Positions 9,397 to 40,219 of a DNA stretch of 56,404 bases are shown here, in pieces (the first letter of the stretch is position 1; each line of letters begins with the position of its first letter). The notes under the pieces were generated by a model. That model searched no databases and was not told where the DNA came from. It saw nothing but the letters and a program-made list of their open reading frames with translations. Position numbers and translations under genes: made by a program. Source of the DNA: a virus (lineage: Duplodnaviria > Caudoviricetes); the IMG/VR virus record IMGVR_UViG_3300012359_000004, positions 1-56,404 of that record. One strand, given 5' to 3'.

Positions 9397-10440
9397 ATGA
9401 CCAAAAGCGACGAATGGCCGCCGTTTGCCTTCGCGCCGTCCTCGCCCTGGGGCCGGTGCTATTCTGATTTCCTCCGGCGCAAATTTGACAGGTCCGGCAG
9501 TCAATCCACGCTGGACCACTACCGCCAGTACCTTGTGCAATTCTTCACCGAGCCCGCATTGATACCCGATGCCTACACGCGGGAACATGTGGAGGCGTTC
9601 GTACATTCACCCGGTCGTGGGCCTGGTAGGGAAGGCAATCCGCCTTCTGTTGGGCTCATGAACAATCGTCTCAGTGTGCTCAACTCGTTTTATGCTTATG
9701 CTGGTGGCTATGGCATCACGAACGAGCAGGGCATCATTGAGCCATTGATGAAAAGAATGCCACCCACAGCGGGATTGAAACAGATGCAGCGGGAGCAAGG
9801 CCCCTATCGTGCCCTCTCTGCGGAGGAGCTGCGTCGGTTCTTTGCCGCGATCCCACGAGACACGATTATCGGCATACGGGATTATGCGCTCTTTGCCACG
9901 TATTTCTTCACGGCGCGAAGACGCTCCGAGATCGTCAATTTGAAGTGGGGCGACATTGAAAAGACCACACTCATTGAGGCGAATGGTGGAAGGCGCGAAG
10001 GTTGGCTCTATCATTATCGGGCAAAAGCTCACAAGCGTCAGGATGCTACAGCGGAATTGCCACAGGTCGCTATGGAAGCTATTGTGCTGTACTTGGAAAA
10101 ATCAGGCAGGCTGGCGACCATCAAGCCGGAGGATTATATTTTCATCATGGCCGATCGACGCTATAAGCCCGATGCGAAGAAGCCATTGCACCCGAATACC
10201 GTGTGGCACGCAGTGAAGGTTTACGCTGCGCGGGCGGGGATACCGCAGGGGAAGATCACGACGCATTCTCTGAGGCACACAAGTGCTCGTGTCCGCTATG
10301 AAAGTGGAGTGGATATCAGGGAAATCCAACGCATCCTGGGCCATGCCAATCTCTCAGTAACGGATACATATCTCCGCCAACTTACGACCACAGCAGACCC
10401 TGGTGCAAAGTTTCTTGAGAAGAAGTTTGGGGACTTCTAG
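9397..10440 (+). CDS. tyrosine recombinase/integrase 1
   Basis: TARRRSEI, HSLRHT, ILGHAN..TDTY catalytic motifs. Confidence 0.95.
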   Translation: MTKSDEWPPFAFAPSSPWGRCYSDFLRRKFDRSGSQSTLDHYRQYLVQFFTEPALIPDAYTREHVEAFVHSPGRGPGREGNPPSVGLMNNRLSVLNSFYAYAGGYGITNEQGIIEPLMKRMPPTAGLKQMQREQGPYRALSAEELRRFFAAIPRDTIIGIRDYALFATYFFTARRRSEIVNLKWGDIEKTTLIEANGGRREGWLYHYRAKAHKRQDATAELPQVAMEAIVLYLEKSGRLATIKPEDYIFIMADRRYKPDAKKPLHPNTVWHAVKVYAARAGIPQGKITTHSLRHTSARVRYESGVDIREIQRILGHANLSVTDTYLRQLTTTADPGAKFLEKKFGDF

Positions 10441-10638: not shown

Positions 10639-11076
10639 TTAAGACAAATGTTTTTCGAGGTATTTTATCGCACTCTCTAAGCGGGTAAAGCTATCATTAG
10701 CAAAGCCCAACAGAGTATTACACTTTCGGCAAAGAAGCTCCCTTACTGTACCGCTATAATGACAATGATCAACTACAAGGTAATCTCCAGGTCCTGGCAG
10801 CACCCCACAAATGGCGCATCGTCCATTCTGTGCTTTAAGCATAGCAGCGTGATCATCAGGAGTTAACCCGTATTTACGTAAATGGCTAACATCTTTGTTA
10901 ACAGCAATAGTGTGCTGATTAGTCGGAGGTAAACAATCCCTAACAAGGGCAGTTTCTTCAGAGGCGGGTTGTATAAATTTAGCGCAAACACCACAGCAAA
11001 AAGCTTTTGGTGACATAGTACGCATTTTCCCACAGTTGCGACATAAGCGTTTTGGGCGTGGTACAATACCATTCAT
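10639..11076 (-). CDS. endonuclease VII-type homing endonuclease
   Basis: YGLT..QNGRCAIC..VDHCH..VRELLCRKCNTLLG; ATG 11076 follows GGAG of the conserved leader. Confidence 0.9.
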   Translation of the reverse strand: MNGIVPRPKRLCRNCGKMRTMSPKAFCCGVCAKFIQPASEETALVRDCLPPTNQHTIAVNKDVSHLRKYGLTPDDHAAMLKAQNGRCAICGVLPGPGDYLVVDHCHYSGTVRELLCRKCNTLLGFANDSFTRLESAIKYLEKHLS

Positions 11077-11160
11077 GGCAAGCTCCAATCTTGTCATCGG
11101 CTCAGGGGTATGTCCAGTACCGCCTGAGCAAAACAATTTTTACGCCTCTATTATACCATA
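11074..11160 (-). promoter_or_regulatory. conserved endonuclease leader (promoter + structured RNA), copy D
   Basis: TGGTATAAT; GCTCAGG-C-GGTA[CTGGACA]TACC-CCTGAGC; ATGACAAG[ATTGGAG]CTTGCCAT. Confidence 0.8.
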
Positions 11161-13178: not shown

Positions 13179-13289
13179 CTCCTCTCTCGACTCATCATGC
13201 TCTCCGTGTGGCTCTTTCTGCTGGCCTGCTACATCGGATTTGTCTACGTGCTGTGGCTGGCGGTCACGACACCCATTCCGGGGAATTGA
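13173..13289 (+). CDS. small membrane protein (38 aa); start supplied by the element end
   Basis: MTLLSRLIMLSVWLFLLACYIGFVYVLWLAV.. Confidence 0.55.
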   Translation: MTLLSRLIMLSVWLFLLACYIGFVYVLWLAVTTPIPGN

Positions 13290-13297
13290 GGGAAGCC

Positions 13298-13534
13298 ATG
13301 AACGATAACCCCGACGTCTACAACGTCACCATCCAGCATGTGGCCATTGCCGCGTCTACGATTGGCTTCGATGTGCTACGTAAGCCAGGATACTACATCA
13401 TCCTCACCGATGCTCTGCCCGGCTATGGAGACGCGGTAAAGTTCCCTGATAGCCCACATGGCTACACAGAGGCCCTGGCATGGATACGGAAAATAGCGGG
13501 CGATGAGGAGGCCAATCCTGAGCAAGCAGTTTGA
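13298..13534 (+). CDS. hypothetical protein
   Basis: GAGGGA RBS. Confidence 0.6.
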   Translation: MNDNPDVYNVTIQHVAIAASTIGFDVLRKPGYYIILTDALPGYGDAVKFPDSPHGYTEALAWIRKIAGDEEANPEQAV

Positions 13535-13874
13535 CCGCAAATTATTCAGTGCCTCTATCCAGGCAAAGTTGCTCGAGTCGCAGCTTAGCTTGCGAGAAGC
13601 GGCAAAGGAATCTGGTATCAGTCTGGCTACCCTGAGTCGCCTCAGCAATGGCAAAGTACCGGATATCGATCATTTCGTGGCCGTGGTTCGCTGGCTCCAA
13701 ATCGATGCGAATGCGTTTATGGATGCACCGCGGGGAGCAATCCTGACCAATCGTGAAAAGTGGGCGTGGCTCTATCTGTGCCTGCGAGACTTGGATGTAC
13801 CGGAAGAAGTGATTCAAGCCATAATCACCGTCATCAAAGTGGTAAAGCGGGGAAGCGAGGCCAATCGTGACTGA
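13503..13874 (+). CDS. XRE/Cro-family HTH transcriptional regulator
   Basis: LSLREAAKESGISLATLSRLSNGKVPD. Confidence 0.88.
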   Translation: MRRPILSKQFDRKLFSASIQAKLLESQLSLREAAKESGISLATLSRLSNGKVPDIDHFVAVVRWLQIDANAFMDAPRGAILTNREKWAWLYLCLRDLDVPEEVIQAIITVIKVVKRGSEANRD

Positions 13875-13879
13875 GCCAC

Positions 13880-14215
13880 GTCAGGAACCCTATAGCAAAA
13901 GCTATGGGTTTGCAAACTGTTGAGCATTTTAGCTCAGGCTGTTACAAGCCCTACCTGACCAGACCCAGCCAGGAAGAGATATCACCCATATCTCTTTATC
14001 GGGCTACGATACCGGCAATGTCAAAGAACGTACCAATGGGTGCGAGGCCAGCCCATTGCTCTATAACTCTCGAATTAACCAGGTTCATAGTAGGGGTTAA
14101 AGCCAGTGTTCGAGAGATGTGCAGACCGGTATCATCGTCGAGGCCACCATTACCCGGGAAACCGGTGGGAGTTACCGGCCTACTCCATATCAACAAGGCC
14201 GCCCCGCAAGGGGAG
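13880..14215 (+). ncRNA. IscB/IsrB-type omegaRNA (HEARO-like) scaffold with no iscB gene
   Basis: GTCAGG..CCTGACCAGAC P1, end hairpin AACCCTATAGC[AAAA]GCTATGGGTT, GGCTACGATACCGG..CCGGTATC, CAATGGGTGC..AGCCCATTG, CTCTCGAA..TTCGAGAG, GTCGAGGCCACCATTACC, CCGG[GAAA]CCGG, CCCC[GCAA]GGGG in the order typical of HEARO. Confidence 0.85.
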
Positions 14216-14298
14216 ATGAAAGGTAGCGAGGCATGAGTGATGTAGTTCCCAGTGGGAGTGTGTTGGTATGGAATATAAAGACGACGTATAGTTTCCAC

Positions 14299-14327
14299 TT
14301 GACCGAATTGTATCAATGTGGTATGCT
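14299..14327 (+). promoter_or_regulatory. promoter of the replication operon
   Basis: TTGACC-17-TATGCT, extended -10 TG. Confidence 0.65.
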
Positions 14328-14365
14328 TACAGTGGCATATCGTACGTATGCCAAAGGAGGTTCTA

Positions 14366-14563
14366 GTGATCACTATGGACTATTTAACCGCAGAGGAGGT
14401 AGCTACAGAGCTTCGATATTCGGTCACAACTGTAAAACGGATGCTTCGTACCAACGAAATGCCAGGCTACAAGTTTGGCGGCGAATGGCGCATCGACCGG
14501 GCCGAGTACGAAGAGTGGAAGCGACAACGCAAAAATCAATATCAGAAACCAGCAGAGGATTAA
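14366..14563 (+). CDS. HTH_17/excisionase-family DNA-binding protein
   Basis: YLTAEEVATELRYSVTTVKRML..MPGYKFGGEWRI; GGAGG RBS. Confidence 0.88.
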   Translation: MITMDYLTAEEVATELRYSVTTVKRMLRTNEMPGYKFGGEWRIDRAEYEEWKRQRKNQYQKPAED

Positions 14564-14706
14564 CTGACCTTCTGGTTTTTCCAGTAGCGCACGTGCTGCA
14601 AAGAAGTCTCCACACACCTATGCAGCACGCTGTGTAGCACTACCTCTATGCATTTTTGCACATGTTGGGCAAGGATGCAAGGGGTAGGGAGAAAGCGAGA
14701 TAACAA

Positions 14707-15159
14707 ATGACACTTCTAGCGGGGCATATCACACCAGAGGAAGCCGAAACCTCTGATCCAACACTGGGCGTTGAGTTTGAGCCTGAACACAATCAGGTCG
14801 TGGTCTACATCGATGAAGGCCATAGTCAAACTGAGGTGAGTTTGACTTATCGGCAAGTCTGTCAACTTCAAGGTATGGTCGCCCAGGCAAGAAGCGCAAT
14901 GGAATGGCATAACGCTACATGGGTCTCTGCCTCTGAGCGATACAAGGTACCTTGTATCGAGCACCTGATGAAAAAAGGTGAGCATGACCCAAAGGGCAAA
15001 ACGCTTTGTGGAAGGGTGCCATCAGAGTTTGACTTACTCATTGGTGGGTGGCAACTTTACCCCATTCGCGGGGAGCCTTCACGCACGCTCCGCGATAAGT
15101 TTACAGGTGGCACCTGTAAGCAGTGCCTTAAAAGATACGACAAAGCAATGCAAGGGTAG
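14707..15159 (+). CDS. hypothetical protein with H/C zinc motif
   Basis: H..TLCG..TCKQC. Confidence 0.65.
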   Translation: MTLLAGHITPEEAETSDPTLGVEFEPEHNQVVVYIDEGHSQTEVSLTYRQVCQLQGMVAQARSAMEWHNATWVSASERYKVPCIEHLMKKGEHDPKGKTLCGRVPSEFDLLIGGWQLYPIRGEPSRTLRDKFTGGTCKQCLKRYDKAMQG

Positions 15160-29413: not shown

Positions 29414-30382
29414 ATGGACGGGCAAGTTTTACCAGTTCCGAACGATAAGACAAGCATTGACTTTGCTGTTACCAAATGGCTGGAAGCCAGCTTTTCACAT
29501 TCTCAGAGTTTGCGCACTATTGGTGAATACAAGGATACTCTTGAGTCTTTTCGTTCCTACCTTCACCTCGATGGACTTGATCTGTTGAGCAATCCCGATC
29601 TGGTTTCATCTCATGCTCAGACCTGGGCTAGGATACGTTCAGATAAATCACGGCGTCCGGGCCCAGTCTCAGGAGCTACGTATAATTTGCGATTGGCGGC
29701 CATAAGCAGCTTCTATCAGTACTGCATACAGTCTTTGCGTTACAAGGGTGAAAATCCGATTAGCCGCCTCAAAAAGACAAAGGTTCAGAAGTATGGAAAA
29801 GCCCGCTCTCTGAACCGAGGGGAAGTTATACGGTTACTTAAAAAGATTGATCGCAGTACGCTTGAAGGACAACGTGATTATGTGCTCCTACAAGTTGGTT
29901 TGAATACAGGTAGACGGGCACAAGAATTAGCGTCTCTGCGATGGCGACATGTTGAGATGGAAGGTGAGTGTGTGACTTTGACTTTTGAAGAGTGCAAAGG
30001 GCATAAAACAATGCGTGATACCTTGGCTGCCAGCCTTTCTAAAGCGTTGCTTCGGTATCTGCGTACCGTCTATGATGGACTACACAATATGGAACCTGAG
30101 AGCCCCCTTTGGGTTTCTTTCAGCGACCGCAATAAGGGCAAAGGAATAGGGATGCAAACCATTGCCGATATCTGTGAGGCTCGCTTAGGAGTTTCAACGG
30201 TGCATAGTATGCGCCATACCTTCGCCCATACTATGCAAGAAGCTGGGGCCAGCATTACAGATATTCAGTCTCGTTTAGGGCATGAAAGCCTGGCAACAAC
30301 AGGGATTTATCTAGCCCGCTTAAAAAGCGCTTATAATCCCTATGCTGAGAAGATAGCGGGTATGTTTGGACTCGAAGAGTAA
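29414..30382 (+). CDS. tyrosine recombinase 2 (Xer-like)
   Basis: TGRRAQEL, CKG, HSMRHTFA, LGHESLATTGIY. Confidence 0.95.
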   Translation: MDGQVLPVPNDKTSIDFAVTKWLEASFSHSQSLRTIGEYKDTLESFRSYLHLDGLDLLSNPDLVSSHAQTWARIRSDKSRRPGPVSGATYNLRLAAISSFYQYCIQSLRYKGENPISRLKKTKVQKYGKARSLNRGEVIRLLKKIDRSTLEGQRDYVLLQVGLNTGRRAQELASLRWRHVEMEGECVTLTFEECKGHKTMRDTLAASLSKALLRYLRTVYDGLHNMEPESPLWVSFSDRNKGKGIGMQTIADICEARLGVSTVHSMRHTFAHTMQEAGASITDIQSRLGHESLATTGIYLARLKSAYNPYAEKIAGMFGLEE

Positions 30383-32274: not shown

Positions 32275-32613
32275 ATGCAAACCAAGCAGGAGCGACGAGA
32301 ATATAACCAAAAGTATAAGAAAGAAGGCTATGGGCCTTGCATCTACCTCATCACAAACAAACTCACAGGCGAGCAGTATATTGGGGCTACAGTCAATCTG
32401 AGGCAAAGGATGTTTGCTCACTGGTGCAGTTTAAGAGGAGGTAGGCACCACTCAGAGAGATTCGTTGAGGCTTTCTATCGCGACGGGAAAAGCGCGTTTG
32501 AAGTAAGCGTGTTGGAATATCTTGCTGAACGTCTGCTCTATCAGCGTGAGGCTTATTACATCATCACTATGCAACCAGCCTATAATGACACACACAAGAA
32601 AAGCATGGCTTAG
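32275..32613 (+). CDS. GIY-YIG endonuclease (catalytic domain only)
   Basis: CIYLITN..YIGAT..R..H..REAYYI..PAYN. Confidence 0.9.
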   Translation: MQTKQERREYNQKYKKEGYGPCIYLITNKLTGEQYIGATVNLRQRMFAHWCSLRGGRHHSERFVEAFYRDGKSAFEVSVLEYLAERLLYQREAYYIITMQPAYNDTHKKSMA

Positions 32614-35114: not shown

Positions 35115-35225
35115 ACTAGCCTTTCAAGCGGATTTATGGTATAATAAGAACACCAAAAATGGTGTTGCCCTGGCGATGCTGGAAACATCCCAAGGCGTGA
35201 TAGCAAAGTTAGGAGCTTTACTATG
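35115..35225 (+). promoter_or_regulatory. conserved endonuclease leader, copy C
   Basis: TGGTATAAT; GCCCTGG-C-GATG[CTGGAAA]CATC-CCAAGGC; ATAGCAAAG[TTAGGAG]CTTTACTAT. Confidence 0.8.
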
Positions 35226-36191
35226 AAACCTATTATACCTCAAAAACATTGTTCCAAATGTCAACAAGAAAAACCTCTTACGAGAGAGTACTTTCATTGT
35301 GACAAATACCAAAAAGATGGCTTTACTAGCCGATGTATTGTTTGTCGTACTCCACCTAAAGTTATTCGCCTTCCTAAAGATACTGCCCCTGAAGGATATA
35401 AAACTTGTGATACGTGCAATCAGGTTTATCTTGCTACTACTGAGTTTTTTCATAGAGCACCGGACACTTATGACAGACTGCGATCTCGATGCAAAATATG
35501 TCAGAAAGAACATGATCGCCTTCGATACGCTCAAATGAAAGAGCATCCACTTAAAGATATGATTCCAAGCCATTTGACTTGCCCTATGTGTGAGCAATGT
35601 AAGCCAATTGCTCTTTTTCATAAAAGCCCAAAGGGGAAATATGGCTTGGCTGCCTACTGTAAGATTTGTGCTGCTCAAGTTGGCAAGCGTAGCCTTGCCA
35701 AACCAGAAGTAAAAGCTAAAGCAGACAAGCGTAGAAAAGACTATTATTATGAACATCAGGAAGAACAAAAGCAAAGCCGCCAGCAATGGTATCAAGCCAA
35801 TAGGGAACGCGTTCTTGAGGGAGACCACCAGTTCAGAAAAGAACATCCTGAAATCCTTGCTGAAAGATGGCAACGTTGGGCAAAGACTGAGCGCGGGTAT
35901 GAGCATTGTCGTGTACGTGTGCGCAATCGTCATGCTCGCAGTAAGGGAGCGCAAGGGAATTATACCTTTAACGATATTCAAAAGCAGTATGCAAATCAGA
36001 AGGGCAAATGCTACTATTGTCGGGTTAAGATAAAAAATCACACAAGCGCTTACCATATTGAGCATGTAATACCCCTCTCTCGTGGAGGGACTAATGATAT
36101 GAGCAATATTGTTCTTGCTTGTCCTTCCTGTAATCTGAGCAAAAGCAACAAGCTTCCCCATGAATGGCCCCAGGGAAACCGCTTGCTCTAA
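35223..36191 (+). CDS. HNH homing endonuclease with three CxxC..CxxC zinc modules
   Basis: CYYC..HIEHVIPLSRGGTN..NIVLACPSCNLSK. Confidence 0.93.
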   Translation: MKPIIPQKHCSKCQQEKPLTREYFHCDKYQKDGFTSRCIVCRTPPKVIRLPKDTAPEGYKTCDTCNQVYLATTEFFHRAPDTYDRLRSRCKICQKEHDRLRYAQMKEHPLKDMIPSHLTCPMCEQCKPIALFHKSPKGKYGLAAYCKICAAQVGKRSLAKPEVKAKADKRRKDYYYEHQEEQKQSRQQWYQANRERVLEGDHQFRKEHPEILAERWQRWAKTERGYEHCRVRVRNRHARSKGAQGNYTFNDIQKQYANQKGKCYYCRVKIKNHTSAYHIEHVIPLSRGGTNDMSNIVLACPSCNLSKSNKLPHEWPQGNRLL

Positions 36192-39367: not shown

Positions 39368-40087
39368 TTATGTAAGCTCTTCTAAGTAGGTGATAAGGGC
39401 TTTCAGGTGCTCAGTACTGTCCTGAACCATCCCCAAAGCCACATTACATTTATGGCAAAGCAGACCGCGAACCTTGCCCGTATCATGATCGTGGTCAACG
39501 TGGTAACGCTCTCTTCTCCCATGTGGAGGCCCTTTGCATACCTTGCACACTCCACCTTGTACCTCAAGCATAGCGTCATATTCTGCACTGGTTATCCCAT
39601 AGAGCCTTTGTAGGCTTTTATTTCGTTGGTGTGCAGGATTTGATGATGGGTACTTCGTCCCTTTTACATATGGGCGATATGGGCGTGTTTCACTAAGGCA
39701 TTGCTTACAACTGGAAGCCACACCTACACTTCTTCCCGACCTTTTTGTGAAATCTGAAAGAGGCTTCGGTTGATGGCATCTTGAGCATTCTTTCTTTATA
39801 TCAAGAGTTACAAGACACTGTATGCATGTATTTCTGTCGAGTTTAGTCCTTGTCCTGGGAAATTCTGAGAGAGGCTTCATTTCATGACAGTATAAACAGC
39901 ATTTTTCCTTTGGAGCGGCAACGCACTGCTTACACTGGGAAGCAACGCCTATCTTGCGGCCCTTTCTCTTATGGAAATCTGAGAAGGGCTTCACCTTACC
40001 ACATTTTGAACAAGGTTTTACCTTCTGAGGGGAATCAATGAAAGAGAGTTCTTGCTGAAAAAGGCCATGAGGTGATATGGTATTCAC
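39368..40087 (-). CDS. endonuclease VII-type homing endonuclease with zinc modules
   Basis: YGIT..QGGVCKVC..HVDHDHDTGKVRGLLCHKCNVALG; GTG start after AGGAGG. Confidence 0.92.
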   Translation of the reverse strand: MNTISPHGLFQQELSFIDSPQKVKPCSKCGKVKPFSDFHKRKGRKIGVASQCKQCVAAPKEKCCLYCHEMKPLSEFPRTRTKLDRNTCIQCLVTLDIKKECSRCHQPKPLSDFTKRSGRSVGVASSCKQCLSETRPYRPYVKGTKYPSSNPAHQRNKSLQRLYGITSAEYDAMLEVQGGVCKVCKGPPHGRRERYHVDHDHDTGKVRGLLCHKCNVALGMVQDSTEHLKALITYLEELT

Positions 40088-40194
40088 GATGAACCTCCTA
40101 CAAAGGTTTATCCGGCCTGGGGGTGTTAGCGCACCCGCCAGGTACACAATATTTCTAATGTGCTTATCATACCATACATCGGCTTTAGAAGCAA
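40085..40194 (-). promoter_or_regulatory. conserved endonuclease leader, copy B
   Basis: TTGCTT-17-TATGAT; CCTGG-C-GGGTG[CGCTAA]CACCC-CCAGG; GATAAACCT[TTGTAGG]AGGTTCATC. Confidence 0.8.
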
Positions 40195-40219
40195 GTTTAT
40201 CCACTATTTGCTACTCTCC

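Follow-up and report, generated by a model that had tools for sequence, protein, structure and literature searches.

A stand-alone IscB-type omegaRNA inserted beside the repressor gene of a temperate soil phage and absent from its sister phage

IscB is the ancestor of Cas9. Here we describe an IscB-type omegaRNA that stands alone in the genome of a phage. The DNA analysed (the window) is the entire 56,404-bp soil virus record IMGVR_UViG_3300012359_000004 of IMG/VR, which has direct terminal repeats and an estimated completeness of 100%. Pfam matches among 67 chosen open reading frames (ORFs) included two tyrosine integrases, a DnaB helicase, a tape-measure protein, tail-completion and head-completion proteins and two EndoVII-type nucleases, and the window is a complete temperate tailed phage. 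Between the stop codon of its XRE repressor gene and the promoter region of an excisionase-like gene lies a discrete insert of 372 bp (13880-14251, + strand) that carries the omegaRNA and is best described as recently fixed in one of two sister phages. We consider it probable that the omegaRNA is borne by a protein-less, one-ended derivative of an ISC mini-transposon (IS200/IS605 family) of Ktedonobacteria and that, if it acts at all, it acts through an IscB supplied by the host.

When the window was scanned against Rfam with cmscan at the gathering threshold, a single match to HEARO (RF02033) was obtained at 13880-14153 (+), with 100.0 bits and an E-value of 2.1e-19. The gathering cut-off of this family is 83 bits, and the match covers model positions 1-211 of 211 without truncation. 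An earlier note on this DNA had proposed a stand-alone IscB-type omegaRNA with an intact scaffold here, to be checked against the Rfam HEARO covariance model, and the significant, full-length match bears the proposal out. The hallmark motifs that it had listed are all present and in order, as are the ribosome-binding-site-like GAAAGG and the ATG AGT GAT GTA that follow, and the scaffold does begin just after the XRE gene: five bases separate the stop codon TGA (13872-13874) from GTCAGG at 13880. In the HEARO core (13880-14153, +), stem P1 is formed by 13880-13885 with 13954-13959, and the first hairpin (13886-13910, +), six bases inside the boundary, corresponds to the right-end hairpin of the transposon. 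Similarity to IscB-linked and stand-alone copies elsewhere starts exactly at GTCAGG (13880).

Downstream of the core, and outside the Rfam model, a 3′ module of three hairpins (14154-14213, +) is common to a chromosomal family of stand-alone copies. It consists of a GAAA-capped hairpin CCGG-GAAA-CCGG (14154-14165, +), a hairpin CGGCC...GGCCG with a 14-nt loop (14176-14201, +) and a GCAA-capped hairpin CCCC-GCAA-GGGG (14202-14213, +), and 13 chromosomal relatives keep all three, with compensatory changes (RNAalifold helices 12-15). The minimum free energy of 13860-14240 was -133.1 kcal/mol vs. -112.7 ± 6.1 for shuffled sequences (z -3.4), with none of 100 shuffles as stable. RNAalifold analysis of a 14-sequence family alignment gave 70 consensus pairs, 40 of them with compensatory changes; 93.6% of the alignment cells could pair vs. 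78.3% after shuffling (0/500 shuffles reached the observed value) and 33-44% when the partners were slid. The phage copy retains 67 of the 70 consensus pairs, which equals the better chromosomal copies. The region is thus a genuine stand-alone omegaRNA of the IscB type, and its scaffold is intact.

The last 38 nt of the insert form a non-canonical 3′ end (14214-14251, +) that finishes in TTCCCA, where the left-end hairpin of the relatives begins. This stretch holds the Shine-Dalgarno (SD)-like GAAAGG (14218-14223, +) upstream of the ATG at 14233, with which the ORF at 14233-14637 (+; 132 aa in the sister phage) opens. No IscB motifs were seen in this ORF, as the earlier note had said; it belongs to no Pfam or PHROG family and has no homologue except the sister phage's own copy. 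We therefore rejected it as a real gene, and the in-frame ATG supplied by the insert may for the same reason mean nothing.

The extent of the insert was defined by comparison with a sister phage (contig L068), the sole related viral contig found via a DnaB search. This genome measures 55,820 bp, is 99% complete and encodes a DnaB that is 96% identical. Aligned to the window by blastn, it gave 42 segments covering 32.4 kb at 68-99% identity (mean 82%), and around the insert the matches run over window 13280-13521 (88%) and then 14252-14656 (99.3%). Window positions 13879 and 14252 are contiguous in L068, at 4002/4003. Read directly, the empty site of L068 is ...ggcaCAATCGTGACTGAGCCAC/GTGGGAGTGTGTTGG..., that is ...CAATCGTGACTGAGCCAC/GTGGGAG... 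without interruption; the filled site of the window reads ...ggcCAATCGTGACTGAGCCAC, then the insert GTCAGGAACC...GTAGTTCCCA, then GTGGGAGTGTGTTGG.... The boundaries are ambiguous by at most 2 nt (a shared GT). Relative to L068 the insertion is scarless, with neither target duplication nor loss of a base, and its left boundary coincides exactly with scaffold position 1, which in IscB elements is the right end of the transposon (PMC10055086; this and the other papers cited by PMC number are drawn on in excerpt).

L068 contains no HEARO anywhere at E ≤ 1. The empty-site form also turned up in two more soil runs, each from a different study, where the contigs that carry it measure 20.8 and 2.6 kb. 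In the two probable source runs only the filled form was seen and no contig joined across the insert, contigs being such that they cannot show absence. A 23-mer from the right flank, searched in IMG/VR and the JGI metagenomes, found nothing beyond the contig of the sister phage.

Two further observations concern the site itself. When uninterrupted it is an 8-bp palindrome, CCACGTGG, with the core CACGTG (CCAC/GTGG; L068 3999-4006), and the insert sits at its exact centre. Within the last 15 nt of the insert, a 10-nt stretch GTGATGTAGT (14237-14246) is identical to L068 3815-3824, where it forms the start of an alternative ORF of 66-72 aa; the identity may be fortuitous or may betray a remnant of phage sequence within the 'insert'.

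The right flank is the best conserved part of the comparison. The segment 14252-14656 (405 bp; L068 4003-4408) is 99.26% identical, the highest of the 42 segments (the next reach 96.2% and 93.4%), and starts exactly at the insertion site. Such identity suggests a recent exchange at this point. Since it stands at 99.26% against a mean of 82%, the event that split the two alleles would be young relative to the divergence of the genomes. The tract also fits recombination starting at the insertion site, as in homing, although for this it is only suggestive.

The phage itself has no enzyme to match the RNA. A six-frame search of the whole genome with a 439-aa IscB (from viral contig L005) detected no IscB, the sole match being to 47 residues of an HNH domain at 36000-36152. 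This domain is C-terminal in a 322-aa protein (35223-36191, +), which we rejected as an IscB partner: its similarity to IscB is limited to 49 residues of the HNH domain, it has no RuvC similarity, and it matches phage EndoVII/HNH PHROGs. Nor was a Y1 transposase (Y1_Tnp, PF01797) matched in any frame of the phage, the control being positive in 10/14 genomes. The phage hence has a guide RNA but neither a nuclease nor a transposase for it, and because the window is a complete phage genome without IscB, any IscB must come from another genome, that of the host.

We then considered where related copies occur. With blastn, 13855-14250 matched none of 50,697 GenBank phages. A scaffold 18-mer was found at 62 loci in species-representative genomes, 26 of them with titles naming Ktedonobacteria taxa; at 25 loci an IscB-like ORF begins no more than about 60 nt away, and eight have no IscB ORF, all eight scoring at or above the Rfam HEARO cut-off. 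Against 169 Ktedonobacteria genomes the insert gave blastn matches in 48 (a tally that takes in the unpublished G117, on which nothing here depends), the best being 84% over 154 nt and 82% over 168 nt. These matches extend no further than insert position 335; positions 336-372 have no blastn match in this genome set. The copy most similar overall is L061, at 74% over 264 nt. Nearest to the phage copy are protein-less, stand-alone omegaRNA mini-transposons that lie in chromosomes of Ktedonobacteria and likewise have the 3′ extension.

These chromosomal copies (L058, L064, L095, L096, L098, L100, L105, L108 and L109, together with L055, L061, L097, L106 and L107) share an ordered anatomy. GTCAGG and the scaffold are followed by CATTACC, then by two hairpins, the first of the GNRA type and the second with TTCCCAnnCAAAA as its loop, and by CCCC-GCAA-GGGG; then come a linker, a terminal hairpin TTCCTCCCA...TGGGTCTCC, a tail of 17-19 nt with AGAAAGGA, and ATGR. 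The same terminal hairpin, tail and ATGR were found in at least 11 of the 18 IscB-encoding elements examined, the other seven not being resolved. As elements with and without IscB end alike, the stand-alone ones are internal-deletion derivatives. They are also mobile units, for L106 and L107, in one genome, show no difference between GTCAGG and ...CAAACTG, after which ATGA follows in each, and lie between unrelated flanks. In locus L024 the IscB stop codon is followed by a left-end-like hairpin, then by the 3′ module (TTCCCAnnCAAAA hairpin and CCCC-GCAA-GGGG) and a second left-end hairpin; this arrangement looks tandem or nested, and it may point to the source of the 3′ module in the stand-alone family.

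Other viral contigs carry this HEARO subfamily as well. Two narrow search patterns, which do not amount to a census, retrieved six from IMG/VR (L004, L005 and L114-L117), each with a full IscB, so that the window is the sole stand-alone case among the seven viral contigs found in this way. In two sequencing runs (X1 and X2), contigs of other HEARO-like elements cover core positions 13938-14071 at several-fold the depth of the phage; related elements are abundant in these soil communities.

The phage copy differs from its relatives at the far end. It is complete through the GCAA hairpin and then has the 38 nt ending in TTCCCA; this end aligns with the first bases of the 5′ arm of the terminal hairpin, and there the insert stops. 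A profile of 24 canonical left ends, run with nhmmer, had no match at E ≤ 100 in 13800-14500, in line with the earlier statement that a second transposon end is lacking. A left end hidden in the flank and a remnant of one in the sister phage were both considered and rejected, the profile search being negative in both. The phage copy accordingly has a right end and no recognisable left end. For that reason the known mechanism would not allow TnpA to mobilise it, and the insert probably cannot transpose. Candidate origins of so clean a one-ended insert are an outer cleavage that went astray, a left end that collapsed later, or recombination. Two features may have a bearing on this: the palindromic site, with its fit to GT/GG, and the GCAA hairpin with the next 19 nt and ATGA (14202-14236), which together mimic the canonical hairpin-tail-ATGR geometry.

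In the uninterrupted allele the position of the target-adjacent motif (TAM) is occupied by GTGG (14252-14255, +; empty site CCAC/GTGG). ISC elements of K. racemifer are reported to insert at GT/GG or GT/GA (PMC4810608). The phage site CCAC/GTGG fits the GT/GG reported for ISC2-1, not the ATGR of the chromosomal family. Whether ATGR belongs to the target or to the element was judged from orthologous genes. One stand-alone copy precedes the gene for methionyl-tRNA synthetase (MetRS), and 11/11 orthologues have an ATG start at the same codon; this ATG is therefore native and ATGR is the target-adjacent motif. The closest orthologue (in G006) reads ...gaggattgt/ATGAAC, which matches the left flank of the filled locus, ...gaggattt. 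The G006 site is compatible both with insertion at N/ATGR and with a GT/... rule. For a dUTPase-like gene, the orthologues start with ATG in 6/10 and GTG in 2/10 cases, two not being resolved.

The placement of the chromosomal mini-elements deserves a remark of its own. They end ...AGAAAGGA-N(6-9) directly before ATGR, and in 9/14 copies this ATG opens an ORF that is at least 87 aa long or open to the end of the locus, MetRS and the dUTPase-like protein being examples; their left flanks often contain the native SD or -10 box of the gene. These elements thus sit exactly on start codons and supply their own ribosome-binding site. The term 'start codon' is not used in the text of Kapitonov et al. 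2016 (PMC4810608). Such placement bears on how elements avoid harming the host and may matter more broadly.

We next turn to the guide. The guide-equivalent flank CAATCGTGACTGAGCCAC, 18 nt (13862-13879, +), lies directly 5′ of scaffold position 1, and the 20 nt upstream of the scaffold, starting at 13860, read GCCAATCGTGACTGAGCCAC. This is the 20-mer, from the 3′ end of the XRE gene, that had earlier been put forward as the guide, and it stands as written; the last XRE codons and the stop fall inside it. The 18 nt are identical (18/18) to L068 3985-4002 at the empty site, and the next two bases leftward differ. In the window the guide occurs once, even with up to three mismatches allowed, and in IMG/VR the guide plus GTGG (21-mer) was found in the sister phage only. 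The 169 Ktedonobacteria genomes contain no exact match; near-matches number 59 (4 with one and 55 with two mismatches) vs. 7 for a reversed control. Conversely, 44 host guides (36 distinct) from the loci studied gave one match to the two phages, with two mismatches. Apart from the empty site, no target was found in the window, IMG/VR or the 169 Ktedonobacteria genomes. In IS200/IS605 elements the guide is flanking DNA, and the RNA is thus aimed at the allele without the element (PMC10055086, PMC10691335). Since a flank that serves as guide is standard in these elements, the phage guide cannot be taken as a sign that its target was selected, being the mere flank of the right end.

The only plausible activity of the phage RNA would be against the empty allele via a host IscB. 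The omegaRNA would be transcribed as the 3′ part of the XRE transcript, from an element that TnpA presumably cannot move. If active, it would load onto IscB made by the host, most related hosts encoding several, and the complex would be expected to cut phage genomes that have the uninterrupted site. Repair from an insert-bearing genome would then copy the insert and nearby markers, a form of RNA-guided retention or homing with a borrowed nuclease. Of the nine genomes with a stand-alone copy, eight have one or more genes for a full-length IscB, 58-79% identical to the query, and in several there are multiple full-length copies. The ninth, the metagenome-assembled genome G003, which holds L061, gave no full-length IscB by six-frame search, only an HNH-domain match, and this genome may be incomplete. 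Set against an inert relic, retention or homing by RNA alone is in our estimate somewhere between unlikely and possible. The stronger form, in which a guide-only selfish element would have host IscB cut rival phages that lack the insert and so spread itself and the linked XRE cassette by homing, we hold to be unlikely.

Several points weigh against the account favoured here. A related capsid gene is present in only one of the 169 Ktedonobacteria genomes (G164, 48% identity), which has no full-length IscB and gave no match to the Rep-like protein of the phage. No chromosomal copy exceeds 84% over 154 nt, and thus no cognate IscB can be named. The flank at the right-hand end is ATGR in 14/14 stand-alone copies and at least 11/18 IscB-linked ones, and GTGG in the phage, which makes the TAM fit uncertain. 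The sister phage carries the 99.3% tract and lacks the insert, so that the tract is not itself a product of homing there. The sequencing runs listed are six soil runs, all of DNA, and the comparison rests on two phage genomes. A scarless insertion despite the missing left end is also left without an explanation.

The alternative that survives best, and one that we regard as a distinct possibility, is that the insert is inert: a dead-end passenger of aberrant transposition or recombination, tolerated between two genes, inactive and bound to decay. This would agree with the lack of a left end, with the absence of IscB and TnpA from the phage, with GTGG rather than the family's ATGR beside the target, with the presence of the insert in one of the two known sister phages, and with a guide that has no exact match elsewhere among the Ktedonobacteria genomes. 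Yet in intactness the scaffold equals the best of the chromosomal copies (67/70 pairs, 100 bits), and stand-alone omegaRNAs are reported to work in trans (excerpt of PMC10691335). The intactness may only reflect youth, given the 99.3% flank, and this weakens the argument on both sides.

A second alternative concerns origin and fits either function. The XRE gene and the omegaRNA (13522-14251) may have come together by recombination at the junction repeat GGAGGC(C/A)CAATCGTGACTGAG, and the 'empty site' would then be only the junction of an alternative cassette. To the left of the insert the phages share just 18 nt and have different genes beyond, an XRE gene in the window and an unrelated ORF of 66-72 aa in L068. 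The genomes are mosaic (42 segments of 68-99% identity), and the junction motif recurs at successive gene boundaries in both phages. In detail, the repeat GAGGAGGC(C/A)CAATCGTGACTGAG is found at window 13505-13525 and 13855-13876 and at L068 3781-3802 and 3976-3998, at consecutive gene boundaries. An SD, a GTG start and a TGA stop that overlaps fall within the repeat, and crossovers that exchange cassettes would be likely here. A break exactly at the right end of a transposon is not predicted by such an exchange, however, and the sister junction ...GAGCCAC/GTGGGAG has no missing base and meets the window at scaffold position 1 and at 14252. We find a joint arrival of the two doubtful as an account of the insert.

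The third alternative, that the phage has domesticated the RNA as a weapon against rival phages, a regulator of the XRE/early-promoter region or a decoy for host IscB, draws on the location in the lysogeny-control region beside a repressor gene and promoter-like sites, on an element that can no longer transpose, on three HNH/EndoVII-type genes and one GIY-YIG gene that may make nuclease-based genome conflict part of the biology of the phage, and on the precedent of viral mini-CRISPR arrays without cas genes (PMC6858448), but it is very improbable given a guide that equals the flank, an insert not conserved between only two relatives, IscB linkage in 6/6 other viral contigs of the subfamily (found with the two patterns) and the failure to find any target besides the empty site in host or phage. 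The earlier suggestion that the element is 'possibly domesticated' is accordingly not supported: the guide is flank and the insert is polymorphic between sister phages, and presence/absence polymorphism marks a selfish insertion of recent date rather than a gene fixed long ago.

The remaining features of the phage lie around and beyond the insert. The XRE-type repressor gene (13503-13874, +) encodes 123 aa and was assigned by Pfam HTH_3 (24.6 bits, cut-off 23) and PHROG 4583 'transcriptional repressor' (E 3.8e-6). Neither the XRE protein nor the 150-aa ORF at 14707-15156 has relatives in IMG/VR. A promoter scan placed promoter-like sites at 14263-14292 and 14299-14327 (+), followed by the excisionase-like HTH_17 gene (14375-14563, +; Pfam HTH_17 47.6 bits, PHROG excisionase families). 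The tyrosine integrase genes are at 9397-10440 and 29414-30382 (+; Pfam Phage_integrase 91.6 and 75.3 bits). The four free-standing nuclease genes, one HNH with zinc-ribbon repeats, two EndoVII-type and one GIY-YIG, are at 35223-36191 (+), 10639-11136 (-), 39368-40204 (-) and 32275-32613 (+); the HNH gene at 35223-36191 (+) is overlapped by a longer ORF on the minus strand.

A complete phage that has the guide and no effector, together with a sister phage that has the matching empty site, offers a clean natural test of what stand-alone omegaRNAs do. Should host IscB indeed be recruited, guide RNAs of transposons could pass from the cell into a virus and work between genomes, an IS200/IS605 derivative no longer able to transpose could survive purely through homing, and RNA-guided cuts could set the boundaries of phage mosaics; the virus would then hold an RNA-only homing element, a 'gene drive with an outsourced nuclease'. 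If inactive, the insert is one more decaying transposon fragment.

The comparison with known systems begins with the HEARO/IscB omegaRNA (RF02033) itself. The phage RNA agrees with it in the full-length model match, in P1, the core helices and the single-stranded motifs, and in a 5′ end that is the transposon end, but it has no IscB ORF and carries the three-hairpin 3′ extension outside the model. Stand-alone omegaRNAs have been described as mobilised, effector-less units that work in trans with compatible effectors, their role being called unknown (PMC10691335; likewise PMC11610941, both in excerpt). Like those of the OMEGA work (Altae-Tran et al. 2021, via the same two papers), the phage copy has no adjacent effector or transposase, evidently moved as a unit and would need a compatible effector in trans; unlike them, it lies in a virus genome without an effector, so that its dependence crosses genomes, and it lacks the left end that its chromosomal stand-alone relatives keep. 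In literature searches judged by titles and the starts of abstracts, no phage-borne stand-alone omegaRNA was described.

PATE-like IS200/IS605 elements, among which omegaRNA-bearing ones that need a nuclease in trans are noted in the excerpt of PMC10055086, resemble the phage insert in being protein-less derivatives that carry an omegaRNA and insert with neither a scar nor a duplicated target. Both ends are retained in PATEs, which TnpA mobilises, whereas only the right end of the phage insert is recognisable. With ISC2 of K. racemifer (Kapitonov et al. 2016, PMC4810608) the insert shares the 5′ terminus (GT)CA..., insertion without duplication, at a site that would fit GT/GG, and a probable origin in Ktedonobacteria; ISC2 elements encode IscB and end ...AT-3′, while the phage insert has no ORF and ends ...CCCA(GT).

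Two systems from viruses offer the closest functional parallels. The free-standing homing endonuclease genes Seg/Mob of T4 show, in the part of PMC13565253 drawn on, the same presence/absence polymorphism, targeting of the element-free allele and a similar tract beside the site, and homing between co-infecting phages is discussed there conceptually; the phage insert encodes no nuclease, only a specificity RNA, and any cleavage directed by it is putative. Mini-CRISPR arrays of viruses, according to the excerpt of PMC6858448, likewise provide a guide and not the effector, with the host enzyme directed at related viruses. These arrays consist of repeat-spacer units, use host Cas and acquire their spacers, whereas the guide of the phage omegaRNA is fixed by its insertion site.

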